From a phage, in the NCBI GenBank assembly GCA_033664045.1, contig GCA_033664045.1_3674.1: a stretch of 64,000 nt of DNA. One strand, written 5' to 3'. Below are positions 30,808 to 43,570 of the stretch, piece after piece; position 1 is the stretch's first letter, and each line of letters opens with the position of its first letter. The notes beneath the pieces are model-generated. The model did no database searches. It was not told the origin of the DNA and saw nothing but the letters and a program-made list of their open reading frames with translations. The position numbers and the translations under genes are program-made.

Positions 30808-30835
30808 TTGACATCTTAAAACTACAGTGTATAAT
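30808..30835 (+). promoter_or_regulatory. Sigma70 consensus promoter
   Basis: TTGACA, 16-bp spacer, TATAAT. Confidence 0.6.
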
Positions 30836-32929: not shown

Positions 32930-33187
32930 ATTTTATGCAGCGCCCATCCCCGGTGGTTGTCTCCCTGTCACCGGTGCCTGCCGTCCTTTCGATATGTATA
33001 TTGTGCCACCTGGCGGGGCCGCTGTCAACACTTTTCAAAAAATTTTTCTAACCTGATGCGCTAACCGCTGCAACCTGGCGGGGCCAGCCTGGCAGGACCT
33101 AACTGACCAGGTAGGAGAGAATGAAGGCTTGCAAACCTGGTGGGCCTATGCTATAGGATAGGTAACAATTGAAGAGGAGGTACAAAA

Positions 33188-33364
33188 ATGAAAGGTAATA
33201 TAATCCCCCTGGAAAATGTAGCTATTAATGACGCTGAGGCTATCGCCCTGGTTGAAAAGGCTATGGCGGGAGCGTTGGAACATAAAGAAGAGTACGAAAA
33301 AATGATGGTTAACCTGGCAGGGGCGGCGGCTGGAGAATTCTACCCAAAAAATAATTTTAACTGA
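33188..33364 (+). CDS. Small hypothetical protein (58 aa)
   Basis: Hand-translated; GAAGAGGAGG site 7 nt before the ATG. Confidence 0.5.
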   Translation: MKGNIIPLENVAINDAEAIALVEKAMAGALEHKEEYEKMMVNLAGAAAGEFYPKNNFN

Positions 33365-33367
33365 TGG

Positions 33368-33396
33368 TTGACAGCTCGTACAGTTATTGTTATTCT
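33368..33396 (+). promoter_or_regulatory. Sigma70-like promoter
   Basis: TTGACA, 17-bp spacer, TATTCT. Confidence 0.45.
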
Positions 33397-33448
33397 TATC
33401 CTCGCAAGGTGAACAACACCACACCAATTAACAGAGAGGATAAAAATC

Positions 33449-33646
33449 ATGAACGCCTACGGAATCAAAGTACGTCGCAACACTCGCCAGGTGGTCACCG
33501 ATCAAATGGTTTGCCGGGTGGATGTAACCATCAACAACGGGCAAGGCCTTTATAAATTCCGTCGCGGTCAGAGCTATACCCGGCAGCAGCTTAATCGTTG
33601 CGCCCTGACAAAAGGTCAGATAAACCACTGGTTTAATAAAAAATAA
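33449..33646 (+). CDS. Small basic protein
   Basis: AGAGAGGA site. Confidence 0.5.
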   Translation: MNAYGIKVRRNTRQVVTDQMVCRVDVTINNGQGLYKFRRGQSYTRQQLNRCALTKGQINHWFNKK

Positions 33647-33649
33647 GTA

Positions 33650-33678
33650 TTGACATATAGTCCGACACCAAATACACT
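33650..33678 (+). promoter_or_regulatory. Sigma70-like promoter
   Basis: TTGACA, 17-bp spacer, TACACT. Confidence 0.5.
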
Positions 33679-33710
33679 AAAAGCACAAAAGACACTAAGA
33701 GGATAAAATC

Positions 33711-34109
33711 ATGAAAACCACTACCTTTAATTTTGATAATGCGGACTTTTCTTTTTCTGATGTCAAGAACTGCCGCCGTGATCGTGGATTTTACAAGGCC
33801 TATAATCTGGTGGGCCTGGACGATGACAATAATTTGCACGAAGTAGCTGAGATCCGGTATTATGCCGCCGCCAGCGGGAACACTCACTACTGCGTTTTTT
33901 GGATACACGACAACAAGAACAATAAGTACGGCTATACTGGAGGCAAGGCGAGCGGTCACGGTTATGATAAAGCCAACGCAGCACTTCAGAGCGCATTAAA
34001 TGCTATGGGGATCACTGCCGACGGCTGGATCTACGAAGAAGAGTTTTTGTCGGCACTTGCTGACCGCCTGGGCTATAAAAAGCACATTGTAACATGCGCC
34101 CACGAATAA
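33711..34109 (+). CDS. Hypothetical protein
   Basis: AAGAGGA site. Confidence 0.55.
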   Translation: MKTTTFNFDNADFSFSDVKNCRRDRGFYKAYNLVGLDDDNNLHEVAEIRYYAAASGNTHYCVFWIHDNKNNKYGYTGGKASGHGYDKANAALQSALNAMGITADGWIYEEEFLSALADRLGYKKHIVTCAHE

Positions 34110-34115
34110 AAATTG

Positions 34116-34143
34116 TTGACACGCTGCAAAATTCAAGTAAACT
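34116..34143 (+). promoter_or_regulatory. Sigma70-like promoter
   Basis: TTGACA, 16-bp spacer, TAAACT. Confidence 0.45.
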
Positions 34144-34191
34144 GGGCACAAAAGGCGGGAATGTTTCCCGCCAACATAAAGGAAAAAGATC

Positions 34192-34596
34192 ATGAATAAG
34201 AACGTACGCCGCATCATGAACGAACTGGCAAACGATGAAAAAATTATTGATATGCATTTGGTCAACATTTGCCGCCGTTGTGTAACATACAACAACCGCG
34301 CCGCAAAAGCGCGTGAGATGAACGCAAAAGGCACCTTAAAGCCATTCCAGGTGGTGGTAAAGGCCATTAAAGATGTAACTAATACGGCAAACCAGGTACA
34401 GGGGAACACCAACGAGAGTACCAATATTGATCCGTCTTACGTAATGAAACGGATCCGGACTTGCAAGAATAAAGAGCAGGTGTATAACGTCATAGATTGG
34501 CTGGACTCCCTGGGCGATGTGGTTTACAATAGGTTTTCTGCAGCTATTGAGATTCAGTTAGACAGGTTGGACGGGAAAGTACTAAAAACTTACTGA
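34192..34596 (+). CDS. Hypothetical protein
   Basis: AAAGGAAAAAG site. Confidence 0.55.
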   Translation: MNKNVRRIMNELANDEKIIDMHLVNICRRCVTYNNRAAKAREMNAKGTLKPFQVVVKAIKDVTNTANQVQGNTNESTNIDPSYVMKRIRTCKNKEQVYNVIDWLDSLGDVVYNRFSAAIEIQLDRLDGKVLKTY

Positions 34597-34643
34597 GTTT
34601 ATTTTTAGATGGCCTTGACTTCAGGGCCATCAATAAAGTAAAC
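34597..34643. repeat. Conserved intergenic element, copy 1
   Basis: ATTTATTTTTAGATGGCCTTGACTTCAGGGCCATCAATAAAGTAAAC with stem ATGGCC/GGCCAT; begins right after the stop codon. Confidence 0.75.
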
Positions 34644-34676
34644 TAGTCTCAACTAAGCGAAAAAGGGGGCTTTAAG

Positions 34677-34796
34677 ATGAGCACTACACGCCAATACACA
34701 AAGGTAACTATTATCGTTTGCGTTGTCGGTTACATCCTGGCGCAAATGTTAATGAGTAGCGCCAACAGTTTTGCAAAATTTTTCTTAAATTTTTAA
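34677..34796 (+). CDS. Small membrane peptide (39 aa)
   Basis: Hand-translated; AAAGGGGG site; hydrophobic core VTIIVCVVGYILAQMLM. Confidence 0.4.
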   Translation: MSTTRQYTKVTIIVCVVGYILAQMLMSSANSFAKFFLNF

Positions 34797-34825
34797 TTGA
34801 CAAGCTAACCCAAATCGGTATACTT
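34797..34825 (+). promoter_or_regulatory. Sigma70-like promoter
   Basis: TTGACA, 16-bp spacer, TATACT. Confidence 0.55.
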
Positions 34826-34875
34826 AAACACGTAAACGGGAAAACTTCCCAGAACACACAAAAGGAGAAAACACC

Positions 34876-35217
34876 ATGACTACTATGACCGCCACAGAAA
34901 AAGCTATGCAGATCGCCGCGCTGAAAAAACAGATCGCAGACCTTGAGAACAAGATCGATAACTTTGAAATCGACGAGGACAAGTACGACGAAAACTATGA
35001 CGAATGGTTAGACGAGATCTACGGCGAAATTATGATCGGAAACATTTCTTTTCTTCCGTCGCGTATCCTCAAGGAGCTGGATCCTATCGCTTACCGCTGC
35101 GGATTTAGCGACTACATCGACAGCTTGGATATTGAGGACGATGAAGAGTACCAAGAATTACAGACAGAGCTCGAAGAAGTGAAAGAAGAGCTTGCAGAAC
35201 TGGAAGAAAACGAGTAA
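34876..35217 (+). CDS. Highly acidic protein (DNA-mimic candidate)
   Basis: D/E-rich throughout with a coiled-coil-like N-terminus; AAGGAGAAAA site. Confidence 0.55.
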   Translation: MTTMTATEKAMQIAALKKQIADLENKIDNFEIDEDKYDENYDEWLDEIYGEIMIGNISFLPSRILKELDPIAYRCGFSDYIDSLDIEDDEEYQELQTELEEVKEELAELEENE

Positions 35218-35265
35218 AATTTATTTTTAGATGGCCTTGACTCCAGGGCCATCAATAAAGTAAAC
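35218..35265. repeat. Conserved intergenic element, copy 2
   Basis: AAATTTATTTTTAGATGGCCTTGACTCCAGGGCCATCAATAAAGTAAAC. Confidence 0.75.
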
Positions 35266-35307
35266 TTTATACTGTTAACACTGAACTAATGCATAGGAGT
35301 TAAAACC

Positions 35308-35553
35308 ATGGCAGCACTAATCACCAAATATTATGCCCCTACCAACACCAAAAGCGCCCGTATCATGGTAAAAGGCTTCGGACGTAAAAAGGTTTACACC
35401 TGGGATTATGCCTTAGACACAGAAGACAACTACACCAACGCGATGACCGATTTTATTAATGATCTGAACACGCGGATCTTGACAAATTATCAAATTACCG
35501 ATATTGCCTATATAGGGGAAGGCGGGATCTGTTTTGTCGGTATCGTCAAATAG
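35308..35553 (+). CDS. Hypothetical protein
   Basis: ATAGGAG site. Confidence 0.5.
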   Translation: MAALITKYYAPTNTKSARIMVKGFGRKKVYTWDYALDTEDNYTNAMTDFINDLNTRILTNYQITDIAYIGEGGICFVGIVK

Positions 35554-35630
35554 GCTGTTTTTTCGGTGGTCCTGGTAGCAGGGCCATCTATAAAGATAGT
35601 TTATCAACACAATGAAAGGAGAAAGTACAC

Positions 35631-35984
35631 ATGATCAGCGGGGCTAGTTTTATTATTGGCGCTATTGCTACGGCTTTAATTGTAAACAAGATCCAGGATA
35701 AAAAAGAAAGAGGAAGTACCGCCCTTGCAGAATATCCATTTTGGACATTCAACGATAACGAAGATTATATTATAAAGTATAAAAATAAAGAAGGCGACCA
35801 AGTAACACCGCGACCGATCCCGGCTTACAAAATGCAGGAAACACTATACCGCCTGGAGGCGGGGGGCGCAAAAATTGTGGACTTTTGGGGATACGACCAC
35901 ACAGATCAGGAAGTTATAAAGCGCCGTATCCGGGCTATTCAGGCCAATATTGAAGTTAGCAAGGGTGGAATATATGAAAATTAA
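35631..35984 (+). CDS. Membrane-anchored protein
   Basis: N-terminal helix ISGASFIIGAIATALIV; AAAGGAGAAA site. Confidence 0.5.
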   Translation: MISGASFIIGAIATALIVNKIQDKKERGSTALAEYPFWTFNDNEDYIIKYKNKEGDQVTPRPIPAYKMQETLYRLEAGGAKIVDFWGYDHTDQEVIKRRIRAIQANIEVSKGGIYEN

Positions 35985-36171
35985 TTTCGAGAAAATTGTA
36001 AAGCGCCCTCATGATTCCGAAGAGCTGCCAGAACGCCGACAGCGTAACAATAAACTGAATAAGCCAAAAAGATTTGGGAAGATCTGGCGGAATCATTATG
36101 ATCGTAAATTGCCCGGCCTACTTTTGGAACGTGAACGACAGGCAGAACGATACCGCCATAAAGACAAATAA
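35974..36171 (+). CDS. Small basic protein
   Basis: Overlaps the stop of the previous gene; R/K-rich; terminator follows. Confidence 0.4.
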   Translation: MKINFEKIVKRPHDSEELPERRQRNNKLNKPKRFGKIWRNHYDRKLPGLLLERERQAERYRHKDK

Positions 36172-36179
36172 CAACCAAC

Positions 36180-36206
36180 GCCCCGCCATTGTGCGGGGCT
36201 TTTTAT
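36180..36206 (+). terminator. Rho-independent terminator
   Basis: GCCCCGC-CATTGT-GCGGGGC followed by TTTTTATTT. Confidence 0.65.
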
Positions 36207-36330
36207 TTCTATCCTACGAATAGCGCCCCTGGTTGGCCCTGTAAGCGCCAAAAAGGCCCCCACCTATGCAATCGCCCCCCTTTAACCTGAAAACATCGCC
36301 CAGGGCCGTTTTATGGCGTTAAAAATATCA

Positions 36331-36358
36331 TTGACATCGTCAACAGGTTAGCTATACT
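36331..36358 (+). promoter_or_regulatory. Sigma70-like promoter
   Basis: TTGACA, 16-bp spacer, TATACT. Confidence 0.55.
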
Positions 36359-36390
36359 AACCACATCAAAGAGAGAAAGGAGTAAACGCC

Positions 36391-36651
36391 ATGCGTAAAT
36401 TAAAAAATTTTGATAAAGTTGATGTTATCCTGAATAATTTTTACTACTGCAACAATAAGGCTATTTGGTGGCGTGATAGTTCCACCGATAAAGTCAAGGC
36501 GCGCTTTCTTCAGGGGCACTGGCAAGGCCGCCCAGTGATTAAAATCATGGGGCAATTGGTAGCGTTTAAAAATTGCCGCCGTGTTGATGACGTTGAGGAG
36601 ATTTTAAACATTTTGCGCCACAATAATTTAAAAAATAGTGTTGACAAGTAA
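36391..36651 (+). CDS. Hypothetical protein
   Basis: AAAGGAG site. Confidence 0.5.
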   Translation: MRKLKNFDKVDVILNNFYYCNNKAIWWRDSSTDKVKARFLQGHWQGRPVIKIMGQLVAFKNCRRVDDVEEILNILRHNNLKNSVDK

Positions 36652-36668
36652 ATCTCAATAAGTATAAT
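36641..36668 (+). promoter_or_regulatory. Sigma70 consensus promoter
   Basis: TTGACA, 16-bp spacer, TATAAT. Confidence 0.6.
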
Positions 36669-36725
36669 TAAACACACAGGCGGGAAAACTTCCCGCCACT
36701 AACAAAGAAAACAGGAGAAAATATC

Positions 36726-37349
36726 ATGACCACCGTTAACATTACCACAGGTTACAATTTATCTTTCGACGTGCTGACCGATGAACAAAAAGAAAAAGCT
36801 ATTGAAATGGTCCGCGAAAGAGAAGAACACAGCGGGGATAACTTTTTTGCAGAAAGTGTAATTGAAGACTATAAAGAACATATCTTTCCAGAGTATGGCC
36901 TTGAAGATACCAAGGTACATTGGTCCGGATTTTGGTGCCAGGGCGACGGCGCATCAATCAGTGCGGAAAACGTGGATTTAGAAAAATTCTTGCGTAAAGT
37001 AAAGGCCCTTACCAAGTTCCGATCAATTCGTCACTTGTTCGGCACAATGCACGATGGCGAACTATCCGCAAGCGTTGAGCGTGATCCATATAGCCGCTAT
37101 AGTCACGAAAACACTGTAAGCGGGTACATCGATACTACATGGCTAGACCTGACCGCCAAACAAGAAAATAAAGTGGAAGATCTGGAAGAGCTGATCACCG
37201 AGACGGTACGGGAGCTATCCCGCAAGGTTTACGTAGACCTGGAGCAAGCTTATCTTGAACAATTTACTACCGAAAACCTGATCGGCCTTATCGAGGCCAA
37301 TGATTGGCGGTTTGATGTGGATGAATATGGCGAGATGACTTTTTCATAA
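36726..37349 (+). CDS. Hypothetical protein (207 aa)
   Basis: ACAGGAGAAAA site; largest gene of the small-gene block. Confidence 0.55.
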   Translation: MTTVNITTGYNLSFDVLTDEQKEKAIEMVREREEHSGDNFFAESVIEDYKEHIFPEYGLEDTKVHWSGFWCQGDGASISAENVDLEKFLRKVKALTKFRSIRHLFGTMHDGELSASVERDPYSRYSHENTVSGYIDTTWLDLTAKQENKVEDLEELITETVRELSRKVYVDLEQAYLEQFTTENLIGLIEANDWRFDVDEYGEMTFS

Positions 37350-37438
37350 ATAAAGTGTTGCAATAACCTAAAAACCTGCTATATTAAAACTCAAGGGGCA
37401 AGACGTTTGCCCCCACACAAAACAAAGAGGAAAACATC

Positions 37439-37819
37439 ATGAAAAACACCACTAAAGCTATTGACACCGTTATGTTTAACCTGGTTACCTTTCGCGAGGA
37501 TATGAAAGATCTTCCGCGTGAAACAGTGTGCGACCATATCGAAAACTATCGCAAACTAATCAAAGAGTTGCCTTTAAAACGTGATCAGTATGCGGCTAAC
37601 GCCATGCTTAATGCCATGATCAAAAAGATGATCCAGTGTGATTTAACTCTGGCCTATGACTATGCGGGTGGTCGTTTTGCAGTATACAATCAGCCCGTGC
37701 CTGGTATGAGCACCACCGAAGAATTGCACGCGCTCAATCTAAAACAAGACGTGTGGGATAGTATGCCTCGCGTGGTGGTATGGGTAGAAAGCGGAAAGAT
37801 TTACGGCGATAATTTTTAA
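37439..37819 (+). CDS. Hypothetical protein
   Basis: AAGAGGAAAA site. Confidence 0.5.
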   Translation: MKNTTKAIDTVMFNLVTFREDMKDLPRETVCDHIENYRKLIKELPLKRDQYAANAMLNAMIKKMIQCDLTLAYDYAGGRFAVYNQPVPGMSTTEELHALNLKQDVWDSMPRVVVWVESGKIYGDNF

Positions 37820-37883
37820 TCAGGTAACAGGCGGCATATTTGCCGCCTTATTGTTAATCAGAACTGTAAAAGAGGTACATAGA

Positions 37884-38255
37884 ATGGAATTTATTATTTT
37901 GGCTGTACTGGTTGCCTTGTTTAACGCCTGGATCGCTGGCAAGATGGGAAGATCCGCCTTTTTATGGTTTATTATATCTATTTTCCTGGGGGTGGTTGCA
38001 ACTATTGTATTGGTTATCCTTGCAATTGTTGACAAGGGGAATAATAGAAAGGGTAAAGTATTTTCAGACCTGTACGACGCTCAAACGTTTGTCAACGCCT
38101 ATTATAGTGATCTCCCAGTCTCCCTACGTTGCAGCCTTGCACAACAGGTTTTCGATGAAGCTAAAACCAGAGATCACGCCCATGAGATTTGTTTAACTGA
38201 GGCGGATCGCTTATTTGAGAGGAATAGAAAATATGTGGGCCAGCCGTTTAAATAA
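37884..38255 (+). CDS. Membrane protein (two transmembrane helices)
   Basis: MEFIILAVLVALFNAWIA and FLWFIISIFLGVVATIVLVILAIV; AGAGG site. Confidence 0.5.
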   Translation: MEFIILAVLVALFNAWIAGKMGRSAFLWFIISIFLGVVATIVLVILAIVDKGNNRKGKVFSDLYDAQTFVNAYYSDLPVSLRCSLAQQVFDEAKTRDHAHEICLTEADRLFERNRKYVGQPFK

Positions 38256-38454
38256 TACCACGTTAATTAATCCGCTTAGTGAAGATTTGAGGCCAGCCGC
38301 CTGGCGGGATGGATTCAATAATGAAAGCTTTATTTTCAGGCCTGATCTTAAGGAATTTTATAACAATGGATCGGACAACGACAGAGATAATTTTTCTTGT
38401 AATGTGCGTGGTGATAATACTCCTGGGGGCCATTGCAAACCACGTAACTGCTAA
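38233..38454 (+). CDS. Hypothetical protein (uncertain)
   Basis: Track ORF trimmed to ATG 38233; overlaps the neighbour; competes with another ORF in a different frame. Confidence 0.3.
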   Translation: MWASRLNNTTLINPLSEDLRPAAWRDGFNNESFIFRPDLKEFYNNGSDNDRDNFSCNVRGDNTPGGHCKPRNC

Positions 38455-38474
38455 CAGGGGGAAGGGGGGAGACG

Positions 38475-38594
38475 ATGACAACCAAGGATAAGCCCCGCAC
38501 CGATAAGGCGCGCCGTGCTATGGTATGGCTTGAGATCATCGCCCTTGAAATATTGTTAGGTGTAGGGATGTATTTTATCGCTGTAAGTAACTGA
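38475..38594 (+). CDS. Small membrane peptide (39 aa)
   Basis: Hand-translated; GGGGGGAG site; hydrophobic WLEIIALEILLGVGMYFIAV; terminator follows. Confidence 0.4.
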   Translation: MTTKDKPRTDKARRAMVWLEIIALEILLGVGMYFIAVSN

Positions 38595-38598
38595 TAAC

Positions 38599-38640
38599 GG
38601 CCCCCGATCCCTGGGGGCCTAACTTTTTAAAATTTTTTTC
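38599..38640 (+). terminator. Rho-independent terminator
   Basis: GGCCCCC-GATCCCT-GGGGGCC followed by TAACTTTTTAAAATTTTTTT. Confidence 0.6.
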
Positions 38641-38650
38641 TCCTTGGGTG

Positions 38651-38678
38651 TTGCAATCCGATCCAGAATATGGATAAT
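38651..38678 (+). promoter_or_regulatory. Sigma70-like promoter (conserved AATATGGATAATA core)
   Basis: TTGCAA, 16-bp spacer, GATAAT; nearly identical -10 region at 39482-39497. Confidence 0.5.
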
Positions 38679-38737
38679 AACAATCAACGGGGAGACACTC
38701 CCCACCACACAGACAAAATTCCAAAAGGAGAAACAAA

Positions 38738-38938
38738 ATGAGCAACAATATCCGCGTTATTAACTTCAAAAAAGAAGAAAAAATTGCTGTGCTGGTTGAT
38801 GGTCAAGAAATCTTCAAGGGCGACTATGAAGATCATCAAACGGCGATTAGTATCACTCGCGTGATCGGTTACCATAATTTCTACCCCCAAGGCGCTGAGG
38901 CAGCAGTTAAACGAATCAAAGAGATTGTAGGCCTGTAA
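38738..38938 (+). CDS. Hypothetical protein
   Basis: AAAGGAGAAA site. Confidence 0.5.
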   Translation: MSNNIRVINFKKEEKIAVLVDGQEIFKGDYEDHQTAISITRVIGYHNFYPQGAEAAVKRIKEIVGL

Positions 38939-38986
38939 AATTTATTTTTAGATGGCCTTTACTTCAGGGCCATCAATAAAGTAAAT
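38938..38986. repeat. Conserved intergenic element, copy 3
   Basis: AAATTTATTTTTAGATGGCCTTTACTTCAGGGCCATCAATAAAGTAAAT. Confidence 0.75.
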
Positions 38987-39029
38987 TTAAACCCTGTTAA
39001 AATAATCAGTGCAAAAAGGAGTAATGATC

Positions 39030-39329
39030 ATGTTTATACCCGCCAATAATCTTTATTTCTTTGATGGTCAGATCGTAGACGGTGTGGAAGTGGAGATCAC
39101 TGGGTGCCCTGGTGGTCAGGCTATGACTTTTCGGAATAATGCCTTTGATGATTCTCATATCGTTATGAGAATGGAAGTTACAAAGCTGGACGACAAGAAA
39201 ACGCTTATTGACTATTCCGTGAAAGATCATCCAGACTACCACATGATCTATGGTGATTTGTGTATTGTTGACCGTGACAAGGTGGGCGGCATTGTGATCG
39301 CTATTGTGAACGATGTTTTCTCTGAATAA
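39030..39329 (+). CDS. Hypothetical protein
   Basis: AAAAGGAG site; ATG 39030. Confidence 0.5.
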   Translation: MFIPANNLYFFDGQIVDGVEVEITGCPGGQAMTFRNNAFDDSHIVMRMEVTKLDDKKTLIDYSVKDHPDYHMIYGDLCIVDRDKVGGIVIAIVNDVFSE

Positions 39330-39469
39330 TTCCGGCAAATGATGCAAAATAAGGCCCCTAGCAGGGCCTGCAGCGATATAATCACATAAAGGCTATGCGG
39401 TTGCATGGCCTTTATTATTTTAGCGTTACAGCGGCCCCCAAGGCGCTTAAAAAATTTTTAAAGAAGTAC

Positions 39470-39497
39470 TTGCATCAAGCCCTACAATATGGATAAT
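39470..39497 (+). promoter_or_regulatory. Sigma70-like promoter (conserved AATATGGATAATA core)
   Basis: TTGCAT, 16-bp spacer, GATAAT. Confidence 0.5.
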
Positions 39498-39553
39498 AGG
39501 ACGTGTCAGGGGGGCGGCCCCAATCATTAACCGGATAGATAGGAGTTAAAACC

Positions 39554-39838
39554 ATGGCTATTGTTACTGCTGGCGATGTAGTAGAAATGGAAGCAAAATA
39601 CTTAAAAGCGGGTATGCATATCCTACGGAATGATCAAGAGTTATTATTAACGATGGTCGACTATAATCCCGGCCAGGATTATCCAAGCATCGACTACTTT
39701 TTTGAGTATGTTGATGAAGAATTAAAAGAGGATGAGGCCTATTGCGGTGAGTTCTGCAATTTCTTTTGTCCTGATGAGGTTGTAAAGGTTATCTATCAAC
39801 CTGGCGTAGCTTTCCCTCTGCACGCTATCAATAAATAA
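39554..39838 (+). CDS. Hypothetical protein
   Basis: TAGGAG site. Confidence 0.5.
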   Translation: MAIVTAGDVVEMEAKYLKAGMHILRNDQELLLTMVDYNPGQDYPSIDYFFEYVDEELKEDEAYCGEFCNFFCPDEVVKVIYQPGVAFPLHAINK

Positions 39839-39903
39839 ACCTGGCGGGGCCGAAAAGGCCCCTACAGCATAAAATCATAAAAAATAAAGAGAGGCAAATC
39901 ATC

Positions 39904-40137
39904 ATGATGGAACAAATTAAACGCGCTGAGGCTATTAATGGCAATGTGATCTATTTTGTCAGCAAAAACGAAAAAGGCGTACCATATGCGGCGGTAATAG
40001 TACAGCCTGACGGAGATTATTGGTTTACTGTATACGGATCTTATTCTTTTGGGCGTCCAGTGCATGATAAAATTTTGAAAGTAGCGAACCCCACCGGGAA
40101 GAATATCACGGCAGAAAAATTTTTTGAAAAGTGTTGA
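39904..40137 (+). CDS. Hypothetical protein
   Basis: AAAGAGAGG site. Confidence 0.5.
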   Translation: MMEQIKRAEAINGNVIYFVSKNEKGVPYAAVIVQPDGDYWFTVYGSYSFGRPVHDKILKVANPTGKNITAEKFFEKC

Positions 40138-40164: not shown

Positions 40165-40212
40165 AATCAAAGGGGGCAACAAGCCCCACCAACCACAAAG
40201 AGGATAAAAATC

Positions 40213-40392
40213 ATGGCTATTATTGCAAAAACTGAGATCGTAGGCTTAGATTCTATTCTCCTCGCATATGAGGAAGCTATAGAAATGTATGTGGTTTCCT
40301 ATGGTGAGTATATCCGTGAATATAAATCTATTGATCTGGCTTTTGAATGTTATATTCGCCAGGTAAATAAAGCATATGATGATTATCGTTAA
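40213..40392 (+). CDS. Small hypothetical protein (59 aa)
   Basis: Hand-translated; AAGAGGATAAAAA site. Confidence 0.45.
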   Translation: MAIIAKTEIVGLDSILLAYEEAIEMYVVSYGEYIREYKSIDLAFECYIRQVNKAYDDYR

Positions 40393-40488
40393 AATAGTTT
40401 GACAACAAACAACCATCTAACAAAGCATAATACATAAGGTGGTAGAATGATCTGATCCGCCACCTGGAACAAAGAAGAGGTAAACACC

Positions 40489-40593
40489 ATGAAACAGAAA
40501 TTAATTGATGCAGTGATCTTGGTTATTGCCCTAGGTATTGGCCTGATTGCAACCATGGCTAATGTGATCTTGTCTTCCAACGGTATCGGGTGA
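40489..40593 (+). CDS. Small membrane peptide (34 aa)
   Basis: Hand-translated; AAGAAGAGG site; AVILVIALGIGLIATMANVIL. Confidence 0.4.
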   Translation: MKQKLIDAVILVIALGIGLIATMANVILSSNGIG

Positions 40594-40602
40594 GGTTGAC
40601 AA

Positions 40603-40818
40603 ATGATCACTAACAAAACAGGCAAAACGGAATTTTTACGCAACTTGCAGATCGGCAAGCCTGAGATCTGGTATTGCACTAAAACACCACGTGACGAAAT
40701 GAAAGACTTCACCGCCACGCTGCAACGGGTAAAGATATCTATCACGCAGAAAAAGGCCTTACTAGTGGTGGAAGGGGAGATCCCCCAAACCGTTGTTATA
40801 GTTGAGCGTACAGCATAG
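40603..40818 (+). CDS. Hypothetical protein
   Basis: Track ORF. Confidence 0.45.
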   Translation: MITNKTGKTEFLRNLQIGKPEIWYCTKTPRDEMKDFTATLQRVKISITQKKALLVVEGEIPQTVVIVERTA

Positions 40819-42909: not shown

Positions 42910-42929
42910 TTTATTAACTGAATTATCAA

Positions 42930-42954
42930 GGGGCTTAAGGCCCCTTTCTTTTTG
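42930..42954 (+). terminator. Rho-independent terminator ending the rightward small-gene block
   Basis: GGGGC-TTAAG-GCCCC followed by TTTCTTTTTG. Confidence 0.65.
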
Positions 42955-43570
42955 TTTGCTCTTTTCCTACCACAAACGGCCCAGCCTGGCAAGTGGAATA
43001 ATTGACTAGCCATCAATCCCGCACACTGTACAAATATACATATAAAATAGATATTGCATAACCTTTCATTGTGTGGTAGCAGGGCCATTTTTACACGTTT
43101 TTCCTTCCAAAATTGCACGTAATGCAGCTATTGCACAAAATTTAACCTGATGCACATCTTCAGTATACTGTCAACAATTAAAAACCCTTATAAGTCATAC
43201 ACTTACACAAACCAAAAAGCGTGTCCTACGTGAAAAATCGGGTGTAACTATAGCCGACAGATCTCAGAATCCACGTACGATCACCATTCTATAGCCTGCA
43301 AAGTATTTATTCCAACCACAGAATAACGGAATAGTCAATACCTGTATAAAATAATTATTCGTATAAACTGCATAACATAAACCCGCCCAGGTGTCAACAT
43401 TTTTCGTAAACAGTCCGAAATTGTCACGGTGAGTTATCATAAATAGAGAAATATTTAGTCGTCTAATGTTTACTGTACATTACTATACTGACTGGAATCA
43501 TTAGATGACTAAGAGAAAGATAAGAAATAATTAACAATGTAAGTATTTTACCTGCAACAATAAGGCAACT

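Follow-up and report, generated by a model that had tools for sequence, protein, structure and literature searches.

Repeated hairpins between the early genes of an rV5-like phage share the layout of T7 RNase III sites

Introduction

What purpose do short, nearly identical repeats serve when they recur at the stop codons of small phage genes? The question is raised by a 64,000-nucleotide stretch of phage DNA (contig GCA_033664045.1_3674.1 of NCBI GenBank assembly GCA_033664045.1; hereafter the window), in which an initial annotation noticed three near-identical elements directly at the stop codons of the open reading frames (ORFs) ending at 34596, 35217 and 38938. The 7 kb around the elements show 93-95% identity with more than 100 genomes of rV5-like phages (genus Vequintavirus). 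The element is missing from the 33 promoters and 20 terminators listed in the rV5 genome paper, and database records label it 'promoter', 'terminator' or nothing. Here, we describe the elements as hairpins of conserved structure and propose that they probably act as intercistronic signals of the T7 type, at which host RNase III would process the early transcripts and leave stabilised 3' ends.

Results

The window contains four copies of the element, all on the + strand, within early operons of several genes and each starting at a stop codon or beside one. The first base of E1 (34596..34644) is the last base of the TGA stop of the ORF at 34192..34596, and E2 (35218..35266) and E3 (38939..38987) start one base past the TAA stops of the ORFs at 34876..35217 and 38738..38938, respectively. 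These are the three copies seen in the initial annotation, and all were confirmed on the + strand; their 48-mers differ by only 1-2 bases, and the 22-nt core, ATGGCC-N10-GGCCAT, occurs three times in the window (allowing at most one mismatch) versus 0 occurrences expected in shuffles. A related stretch at about 35575, previously taken for a fragment, does exist, but it belongs to a complete, diverged fourth copy (E4, 35553..35601), which starts on the last base of the TAG stop of the ORF at 35308..35553. A covariance model of the element, run over the whole 64-kb window with filters off, returned exactly these four members and no others.

The initial annotation described each copy as a 6-bp stem with a 10-nt loop. 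This core is present, but the real hairpin is larger, with the flanks of the core pairing with each other. Folded as + strand RNA, the whole ~49-nt element forms a single interrupted hairpin, in which a 10-bp lower stem joins a U-rich 5' flank to an A-rich 3' flank (up to 3 further pairs are possible), an internal loop consists of a 2-nt 5' bulge (UA; UC in E4) and a 3-nt 3' bulge (AAU; UAU in E4), and a 10-bp upper stem, GAUGGCCUUG/CAGGGCCAUC, is capped by a tetraloop. With 10 + 10 bp and up to 3 extra pairs, the hairpin spans about two helical turns of double-stranded RNA. In E1, the lower stem pairs 34596-34605 with 34635-34644 and the upper stem 34608-17 with 34622-31, leaving the 5' bulge at 34606-07, the tetraloop ACUU at 34618-21 and the 3' bulge at 34632-34. 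The same layout is found in E2, with the tetraloop ACUC. A G-to-U change in E3 (TTTAC) opens the topmost pair of the upper stem and produces a 6-nt loop. E4 has the tetraloop GUAG; two G-U pairs preserve its upper stem, and compensatory changes preserve its lower stem. No Rfam family matched; the best overlap, with the rhtB small RNA, reached 25 bits (E = 1.6), below the gathering score of 55.

The fold is strongly biased towards one strand. The + strand RNAs fold at -20 to -28 kcal/mol with z-scores of -5 to -7, and the - strand fold is weaker in all four copies, most of all in E4 (-9.2 versus -27.8 kcal/mol on the + strand), where it collapses because several of the pairs are G-U. Likewise, the element model scores 71-80 bits on the + strand and 25-44 bits on the - strand. 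A good fold is thus confined to the + strand RNA. These data bear on the suggestion that the element works at the level of DNA, either as an operator in which ATGGCC-N10-GGCCAT is bound by a dimeric DNA-binding protein or as a dedicated recombination or mobility site. The canonical copies do contain a perfect 6-bp inverted repeat. However, the left arm of E4 reads GTGGTC, so that 2 of the 6 palindrome positions are lost in the DNA while G-U pairs maintain the RNA pairing, which shows that the conserved structure does not fit a DNA palindrome, and the strand asymmetry likewise favours RNA. The regulator-binding palindrome of the initial annotation was thus not supported, and we regard an element that works primarily at the DNA level as very improbable.

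The four copies in the window agree in their pairing: 97.5% of the alignment cells pair in the proposed register, compared with 35-58% in slid registers. Relative to the canonical copies, E4 has four lower-stem pairs changed on both sides and three upper-stem pairs changed only to G-U. We then gathered the orthologous sites from 11 further phages (12 in all) and aligned 29 distinct variants, of which 98.4% of 579 cells pair; slid registers reach at most 56%, and shuffles 94.4 +/- 0.5%. In the upper helix, 99.3% of cells pair. Variation falls mostly at tetraloop positions 3-4 (ACUU, ACUC, ACAC, ACGC and ACCC; GUAG, GUUG, GCUG and GUAA), and E4 orthologues have a lower-stem C-G pair swapped to U-A. 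Altogether, a pairing pattern of this kind marks a structure under selection in the + strand transcript. Outside the phages, none of 5,426 Escherichia coli genomes contains a copy of the element; a 15-base pattern scan of IMG/VR yielded ~120 single chance matches in unrelated contigs and was uninformative for relatives.

The layout of the element is that of RNase III sites in T7. Six of these sites (R0.3, R0.5, R1, R1.1, R4.7 and R18.5) fold into a 9-10-bp upper stem with a 3-5-nt loop, a 2-nt/3-nt internal loop and a lower stem, and R1.3 is similar but lacks the bulge. In the six folded sites, the position that we take to be the cut coordinate coincides with the last base of the 3-nt bulge. 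The consensus structure of the T7 sites is supported by 10 covarying pairs. A covariance model was built from the seven T7 sites only, leaving out R3.8, R13 and R6.5, which have a non-canonical fold at the coordinates assumed for them. When this T7-only model was run over both strands of the window (128 kb) with filters off, the top four matches were E1 (23.3 bits), E2 (21.7 bits), E4 (20.0 bits) and E3 (19.0 bits), with E-values of 3.5e-4 to 8.5e-3, all four matches being of full length and in one register on the + strand. The model also found the held-out T7 site R6.5 at 23.6 bits and, apart from R6.5, no other + strand match below E = 0.05 in T7. Its maximum in 191 kb of unrelated viral DNA was 14.4 bits, and loci carrying the invariant 15-mer by chance, used as a negative control, scored at most 11.7 bits.

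The resemblance extends to details. The bulges UA/AAU of the canonical copies are those of T7 R1, and the bulges UC/UAU of E4 are those of R0.3, R0.5, R1.1 and R18.5. In both systems, hairpins of about two turns with a small loop, an A-U-rich lower stem and GGCC in the 3' arm lie between the cistrons of early polycistronic transcripts, several conserved copies occur per genome, and the hairpins of R0.5, R1, R4.7 and R18.5 likewise begin at the upstream stop codon. The two also differ. The element is carried by a ~137-kb myovirus without a phage RNA polymerase, whereas T7 is a podovirus; the lower stem of the element (10-13 bp) is longer and more regular than those of the T7 sites; and the copies of the element are 96-98% alike, compared with a mean column identity of 68% among the T7 sites. 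Furthermore, the T7 sites are cut by RNase III, whereas cleavage of the elements is predicted.

An idealised RNase III substrate comprises 22 bp, and internal loops limit the enzyme to cutting one strand, leaving stabilising 3' hairpins (PMC3867540). The RNase III sites of E. coli mapped in vivo are over-represented in the intergenic parts of transcripts (PMC6212723), and in the ~7-kb early precursor of T7 five such sites are cut co-transcriptionally, R1.1 at a single bond (PMC4858673). With the elements placed in the T7 alignment register, we judged the base pairs of the proximal (pb), middle and distal (db) boxes by the Pertzev and Nicholson rules (PMC1540722). In the canonical copies pb2 is A-U, so that the G-C/C-G binding antideterminant is absent, and pb4, being non-Watson-Crick, does not provide the catalytic antideterminant; as in the T7 sites, the middle box has G-C/C-G and db2 has U-G. 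Other positions fit less well. In the elements, pb1 (U-A in place of G-C) and db1 (C-G in place of U-A) depart from all seven T7 sites and from the published optimum, and pb3 (G-C) departs from T7, where R1 has C-G, and from the A-U of the optimum. In E4, pb2 is G-U, which places a purine 2-amino group where binding is reportedly hindered (PMC1540722). The box pairs are therefore only partly compatible with E. coli RNase III.

These mismatches are one of several groups of observations that weigh against processing by RNase III. The T7-only scores are modest (19-23 bits), and their E-values are rough, having come from a shortened calibration. In the reverse test, the element model gave no significant match in the T7 genome, where R1 ranked second-best at E = 3.5, so that we claim a similarity of design and not homology. 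The comparison also depends on the T7 cleavage coordinates, which we take to be those of Dunn and Studier (1983). Seventeen bases of the 3' arm (CAGGGCCAUC-AUAAAG) are invariant beyond what pairing needs, which could instead reflect a sequence-specific protein or a constraint at the DNA level, and in the three canonical copies TTGAC and the UP-like A/T tract are conserved as well, as a promoter role would have it. Site 1 of phage Gotham (the E1 orthologue, L003 4880-4931) has lost the 3' arm of the upper stem through a 5-nt deletion, GGGCC, and phage rV5_ev146 is without sites 1 and 3; individual copies are thus dispensable. Finally, we found no transcript-end or cleavage data in the literature on rV5-like phages, and cleavage is here wholly a matter of prediction. 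The Gotham site, which folds at -8.9 kcal/mol, represents a naturally disabled copy.

The strongest rival is an RNA hairpin that acts independently of RNase III, either as an intercistronic stabiliser that stops 3' exonucleases once the message has been cut elsewhere, or as the site of a phage or host RNA-binding protein controlling the adjacent cistrons, although we consider it unlikely. Stabilisers of this kind are known from repetitive extragenic palindromic (REP) sequences and the puf operon, where repeated, stable hairpins just past a stop codon within an operon keep 3' exonucleases off the upstream segment and contain no endonuclease site of their own; REP sequences are, however, host-chromosomal and G+C-rich. 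The + strand bias, the G-U pairs, the covariation and the intercistronic placement fit such a hairpin equally well, the invariant 17-nt 3' arm suggests sequence-specific recognition, and pb1 and db1 lie off the RNase III optimum. What it leaves unexplained is the T7-like layout with its internal-loop sequences, and why the T7-only model picks these four hairpins and passes over other stable ones in the window. In addition, a Pfam scan of the proteins flanking the elements gave no informative match except to the gp1.1 family described below and identified no candidate RNA-binding protein.

The surroundings of the elements are those of an early-gene cluster: small + strand ORFs are interspersed with strong sigma-70 promoters and with ordinary G+C-rich/U-tract terminators. 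Each copy lies between co-directional genes without a canonical promoter or terminator of its own, and on the map of promoters, terminators and ORFs the elements are placed inside polycistronic transcripts, between cistrons. On this map alone, E2 and E4 belong to a putative operon at 34797..36199 on the + strand. It would start from the promoter TTGACA-16-TATACT (34797-34824), continue through the gene at 34876-35217, E2, the gene at 35308-35553, E4, the gene at 35631-35984 and a last gene at 35974-36168, and end at an intrinsic terminator at 36180-36199.

Could the hairpins themselves be terminators or attenuators? In phage Murica, two 45-bp terminators annotated by the curators correspond to a canonical copy and to the orthologue of E4, and the hairpin is indeed stable. 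Nevertheless, the tails that follow the four hairpins on the + strand (UAGUCUCAAC, UUUAUACUGU, UUAAACCCUG and UCAACACAAU) contain no U-run, nor does one follow the stem on the other strand, and the base of the stem is A-U rich. None of the four copies passed a terminator scan that did find genuine G+C-rich/U-tract terminators nearby, at 36180, 37829 and 38599, and efficient termination would deprive the downstream genes of transcripts. The initial annotation had already set a canonical terminator aside; the scan bears this out, with the U-run preceding the hairpin on either strand, and we give intrinsic termination hardly any credence.

A promoter deserves closer attention, as the initial annotation had suggested a combined processing site and promoter. 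The element could mainly be a sigma-70 early promoter that drives the downstream gene, composed of an UP-like A/T tract, a -35 hexamer TTGACT in the top of the hairpin, an 18-bp spacer and a -10 hexamer TAAACT, with its self-complementarity being incidental or modulatory. Both hexamers are of threshold quality in E1-E3, two copies in Gotham carry a PhagePromoter annotation, and the upstream tract resembles the UP regions of the strong promoters of the phage. Moreover, canonical copies hardly vary in TTGAC, in contrast to the two loop bases that follow it, and no other promoter is recognisable for the genes downstream of E2, E3 and E4. Yet the match covers only 9 of 12 consensus positions with a suboptimal spacer, a class with 70 members found versus 43 +/- 7 in shuffles, whereas the clear promoters of the phage, of the type TTGACA-16/17-TATAAT, match 10-12 of 12 positions and have spacers of 16-17 bp. 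The presumed spacer is the best-conserved part of the element, and promoters do not conserve their spacers. E4 keeps the structure although CTGGTA replaces the -35 hexamer, changes in the '-10' are compensated by changes in the 'UP' tract, which only pairing explains, and the element is absent from the promoter table of the rV5 authors. Of the two functions combined in the initial annotation, processing is thus favoured by the likeness to T7 sites, and the promoter is left as a weak candidate lacking in E4; a primarily promoter role appears improbable to us.

For processing by RNase III, the structure allows a precise prediction. Host RNA polymerase would read through the elements in the polycistronic early mRNA, and the hairpin would form in the transcript. 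RNase III would bind the 10-bp upper stem and cleave once, in the 3' strand of the asymmetric internal loop, at ...GGGCCAUC-AAU/AAAG... (slash, scissile bond), that is, after positions 34634 in E1, 35256 in E2, 35591 in E4 and 38977 in E3. The upstream message would then end in a stable 10-bp hairpin and so be shielded from 3' exonucleases, and the downstream cistron would be freed with an A-rich leader of its own of ~40-50 nt. Neighbouring small early genes may thereby gain separate stabilities and translation. We infer the cutting, its positions and its effect on the mRNA from the structural comparison.

The repeats also behave as junctions in the evolution of the early region. Phage ECP26 lacks the DNA between E1 and E2, and the single remaining copy has the left flank of E1 and the right flank of E2. 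In 241Ecol014PP, the gene between E2 and E4 is gone, and the remaining copy is E2-type through ...GGGCCATCAATAAAG and E4-type beyond, which places the crossover in the shared ATAAAG core. The phage KKE7M, a Justusliebigvirus of another subfamily, shares a 475-bp cassette at 96% identity, which begins with the promoter at 34796 and ends at 35270, the 3' edge of E2, so that E2 forms the 3' boundary at which similarity stops; within the 12-kb Justusliebigvirus locus, no copy of the element was found besides that of the shared cassette. Some rare variants are common to E1 and E2 of one genome and not found in its E3 (TTTTCAG in phiWec193; the ACAC loop in EdH4 and 241Ecol014PP), which suggests gene conversion.

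Since the same ~49 bp are repeated at gene boundaries, the copies can be regarded as DNA-level homology patches, at which recombination would delete or swap cassettes. The junctions in the deletions, the cassette boundary between subfamilies and the signs of gene conversion might be taken to favour a dedicated recombination site. However, 49-bp repeats recombine without any dedicated function, and the deletions in rV5_ev146 end outside the elements, showing that recombination at the elements is not obligatory. The initial annotation had also considered a small mobile repeat. The part of this idea that stands is the role of the copies as junctions for cassette deletion and exchange; the search of related genomes placed the element at the same orthologous sites in 12 phage genomes, so that the copies are not actively transposing, and we saw no sign of transposition.

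Further patches of KKE7M (L125) with 75-93% identity correspond to 37472-37805, 40201-40394 and 40538-40816 of the window, amid unrelated early genes. Mosaic exchange of single-gene cassettes between the subfamilies thus goes beyond the E2 cassette.

A comparable behaviour has been described for the PeSL regulatory cassettes of T4-type phages (Arbiol 2010, PMC2839356; Comeau 2014, PMC4122927). Like the elements, these motifs are ~50-bp stem-loops between small non-essential early ORFs, contain the junctions of insertions, deletions or replacements between close relatives, as here in ECP26, 241Ecol014PP and KKE7M, and are linkers for modular shuffling. They differ in consisting of a terminator stem-loop, an AT-rich tract and a near-consensus sigma-70 promoter (PMC2839356, PMC4122927), whereas the elements have no terminator tail, carry weak promoter-like hexamers inside the hairpin and show the RNase III layout. 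We therefore do not classify the elements as PeSL cassettes, as the defining terminator stem-loop and near-consensus promoter are lacking.

A closer analogue of the T4-type PeSLs in this phage is formed by its densely arrayed near-consensus sigma-70 promoters and the G+C-rich terminators close to them. These promoters lie on the + strand at 30808, 33368, 33650, 34116, 34797, 36331, 36641, 40134, 41664 and 42412, mostly with TTGACA, 16-17-bp spacers and an A/T-rich, UP-like tract upstream, at a density of about one per 1-3 small genes.

The last gene of the E2/E4 operon, a 65-aa ORF at 35974-36168 on the + strand, matches the Pfam family PF08200, 'Bacteriophage 1.1 protein', which corresponds to T7 gene 1.1 (E 2.6e-11, 44.2 bits, cutoff 21). 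By BLASTP the similarity of the protein to T7 gp1.1 is weak (E = 0.11), and the Pfam profile is decisive. In T7, gene 1.1 sits directly after site R1.1. The presence of a gp1.1 homologue in an rV5-like operon indicates that early genes have moved between T7-like and rV5-like phages. Public records of Murica and 241Ecol014PP already remark on the gp1.1 likeness of this ORF. A 113-aa gene flanking an element has homologues outside the genus at only ~41% identity.

Discussion

Signals of this kind are well known from T7; what is new is their occurrence in the rV5-like lineage, together with their behaviour as recombination junctions. We found no report of RNase III sites in rV5-like phages in the searchable literature. 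If the elements are indeed processed by RNase III, the processing of early messages by the host enzyme, which has been regarded as a hallmark of T7-like podoviruses, would extend to rV5-like myoviruses, a large group of therapeutic and typing phages whose early-gene regulation is essentially uncharted, and the separate stabilities of messages from tightly packed small early genes would be explained. The four predicted cut sites are precise to the nucleotide and are cheap and easy to test. Independently of cleavage, the repeats mark breakpoints of cassette loss and of exchange across subfamilies, which is useful for understanding and engineering accessory early regions with their anti-defence genes.

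It is tempting to speculate further that each element is a three-in-one connector, combining a hairpin for both RNase III processing and stabilisation with a weak internal sigma-70 promoter and a joint for the exchange of single-gene cassettes. Connector cassettes of promoter, gene and hairpin would then have been passed among Vequintavirinae, Stephanstirmvirinae and, historically, T7-like phages, the last of these being included because the gp1.1 homologue hints at such an exchange. Both the connector and its passage among these groups are doubtful in our estimation. If they were real, RNase III signals would be a shared, exchangeable 'plug' format for early genes and no peculiarity of T7; unless the idea proves general, the concept of such signals is unchanged.

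Three minor observations concern other parts of the window and its relatives. About 20 unannotated GenBank records of the series MG0656xx, named 'Campylobacter phage' with C. jejuni as host, are ~95% identical to positions 33000-40000 of the window over 7 kb; this looks like mislabelling or contamination and not a real host jump.

The fifth-best match of the T7-only model (16.7 bits, E 0.05) lies at 39377-39427 on the + strand, where a hairpin AAAGGCUAUGC-GGUU-GCAUGGCCUUUAU is followed by UAUUUU. Its arms resemble the AAGG...GGCCUUUAU of T7, and it appears in the rV5 paper as terminator t177. The hairpin may serve as a terminator, as another site of RNase III type, or as both.

A second fragment noted in the initial annotation, at about 43085, is a 15-nt exact match (TGGTAGCAGGGCCAT, 43074..43088 on the + strand) to the loop and 3' arm of E4. 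The match is real; it is without a 5' arm and has no stable fold (-6.3 kcal/mol), and by its sequence it is probably a relic at most and no functional copy. It lies past the terminator at 42928-42946, in a stretch of ~300 bp without long ORFs, and rV5_ev146 has it too; it was probably left behind by an old recombination event that involved an element.

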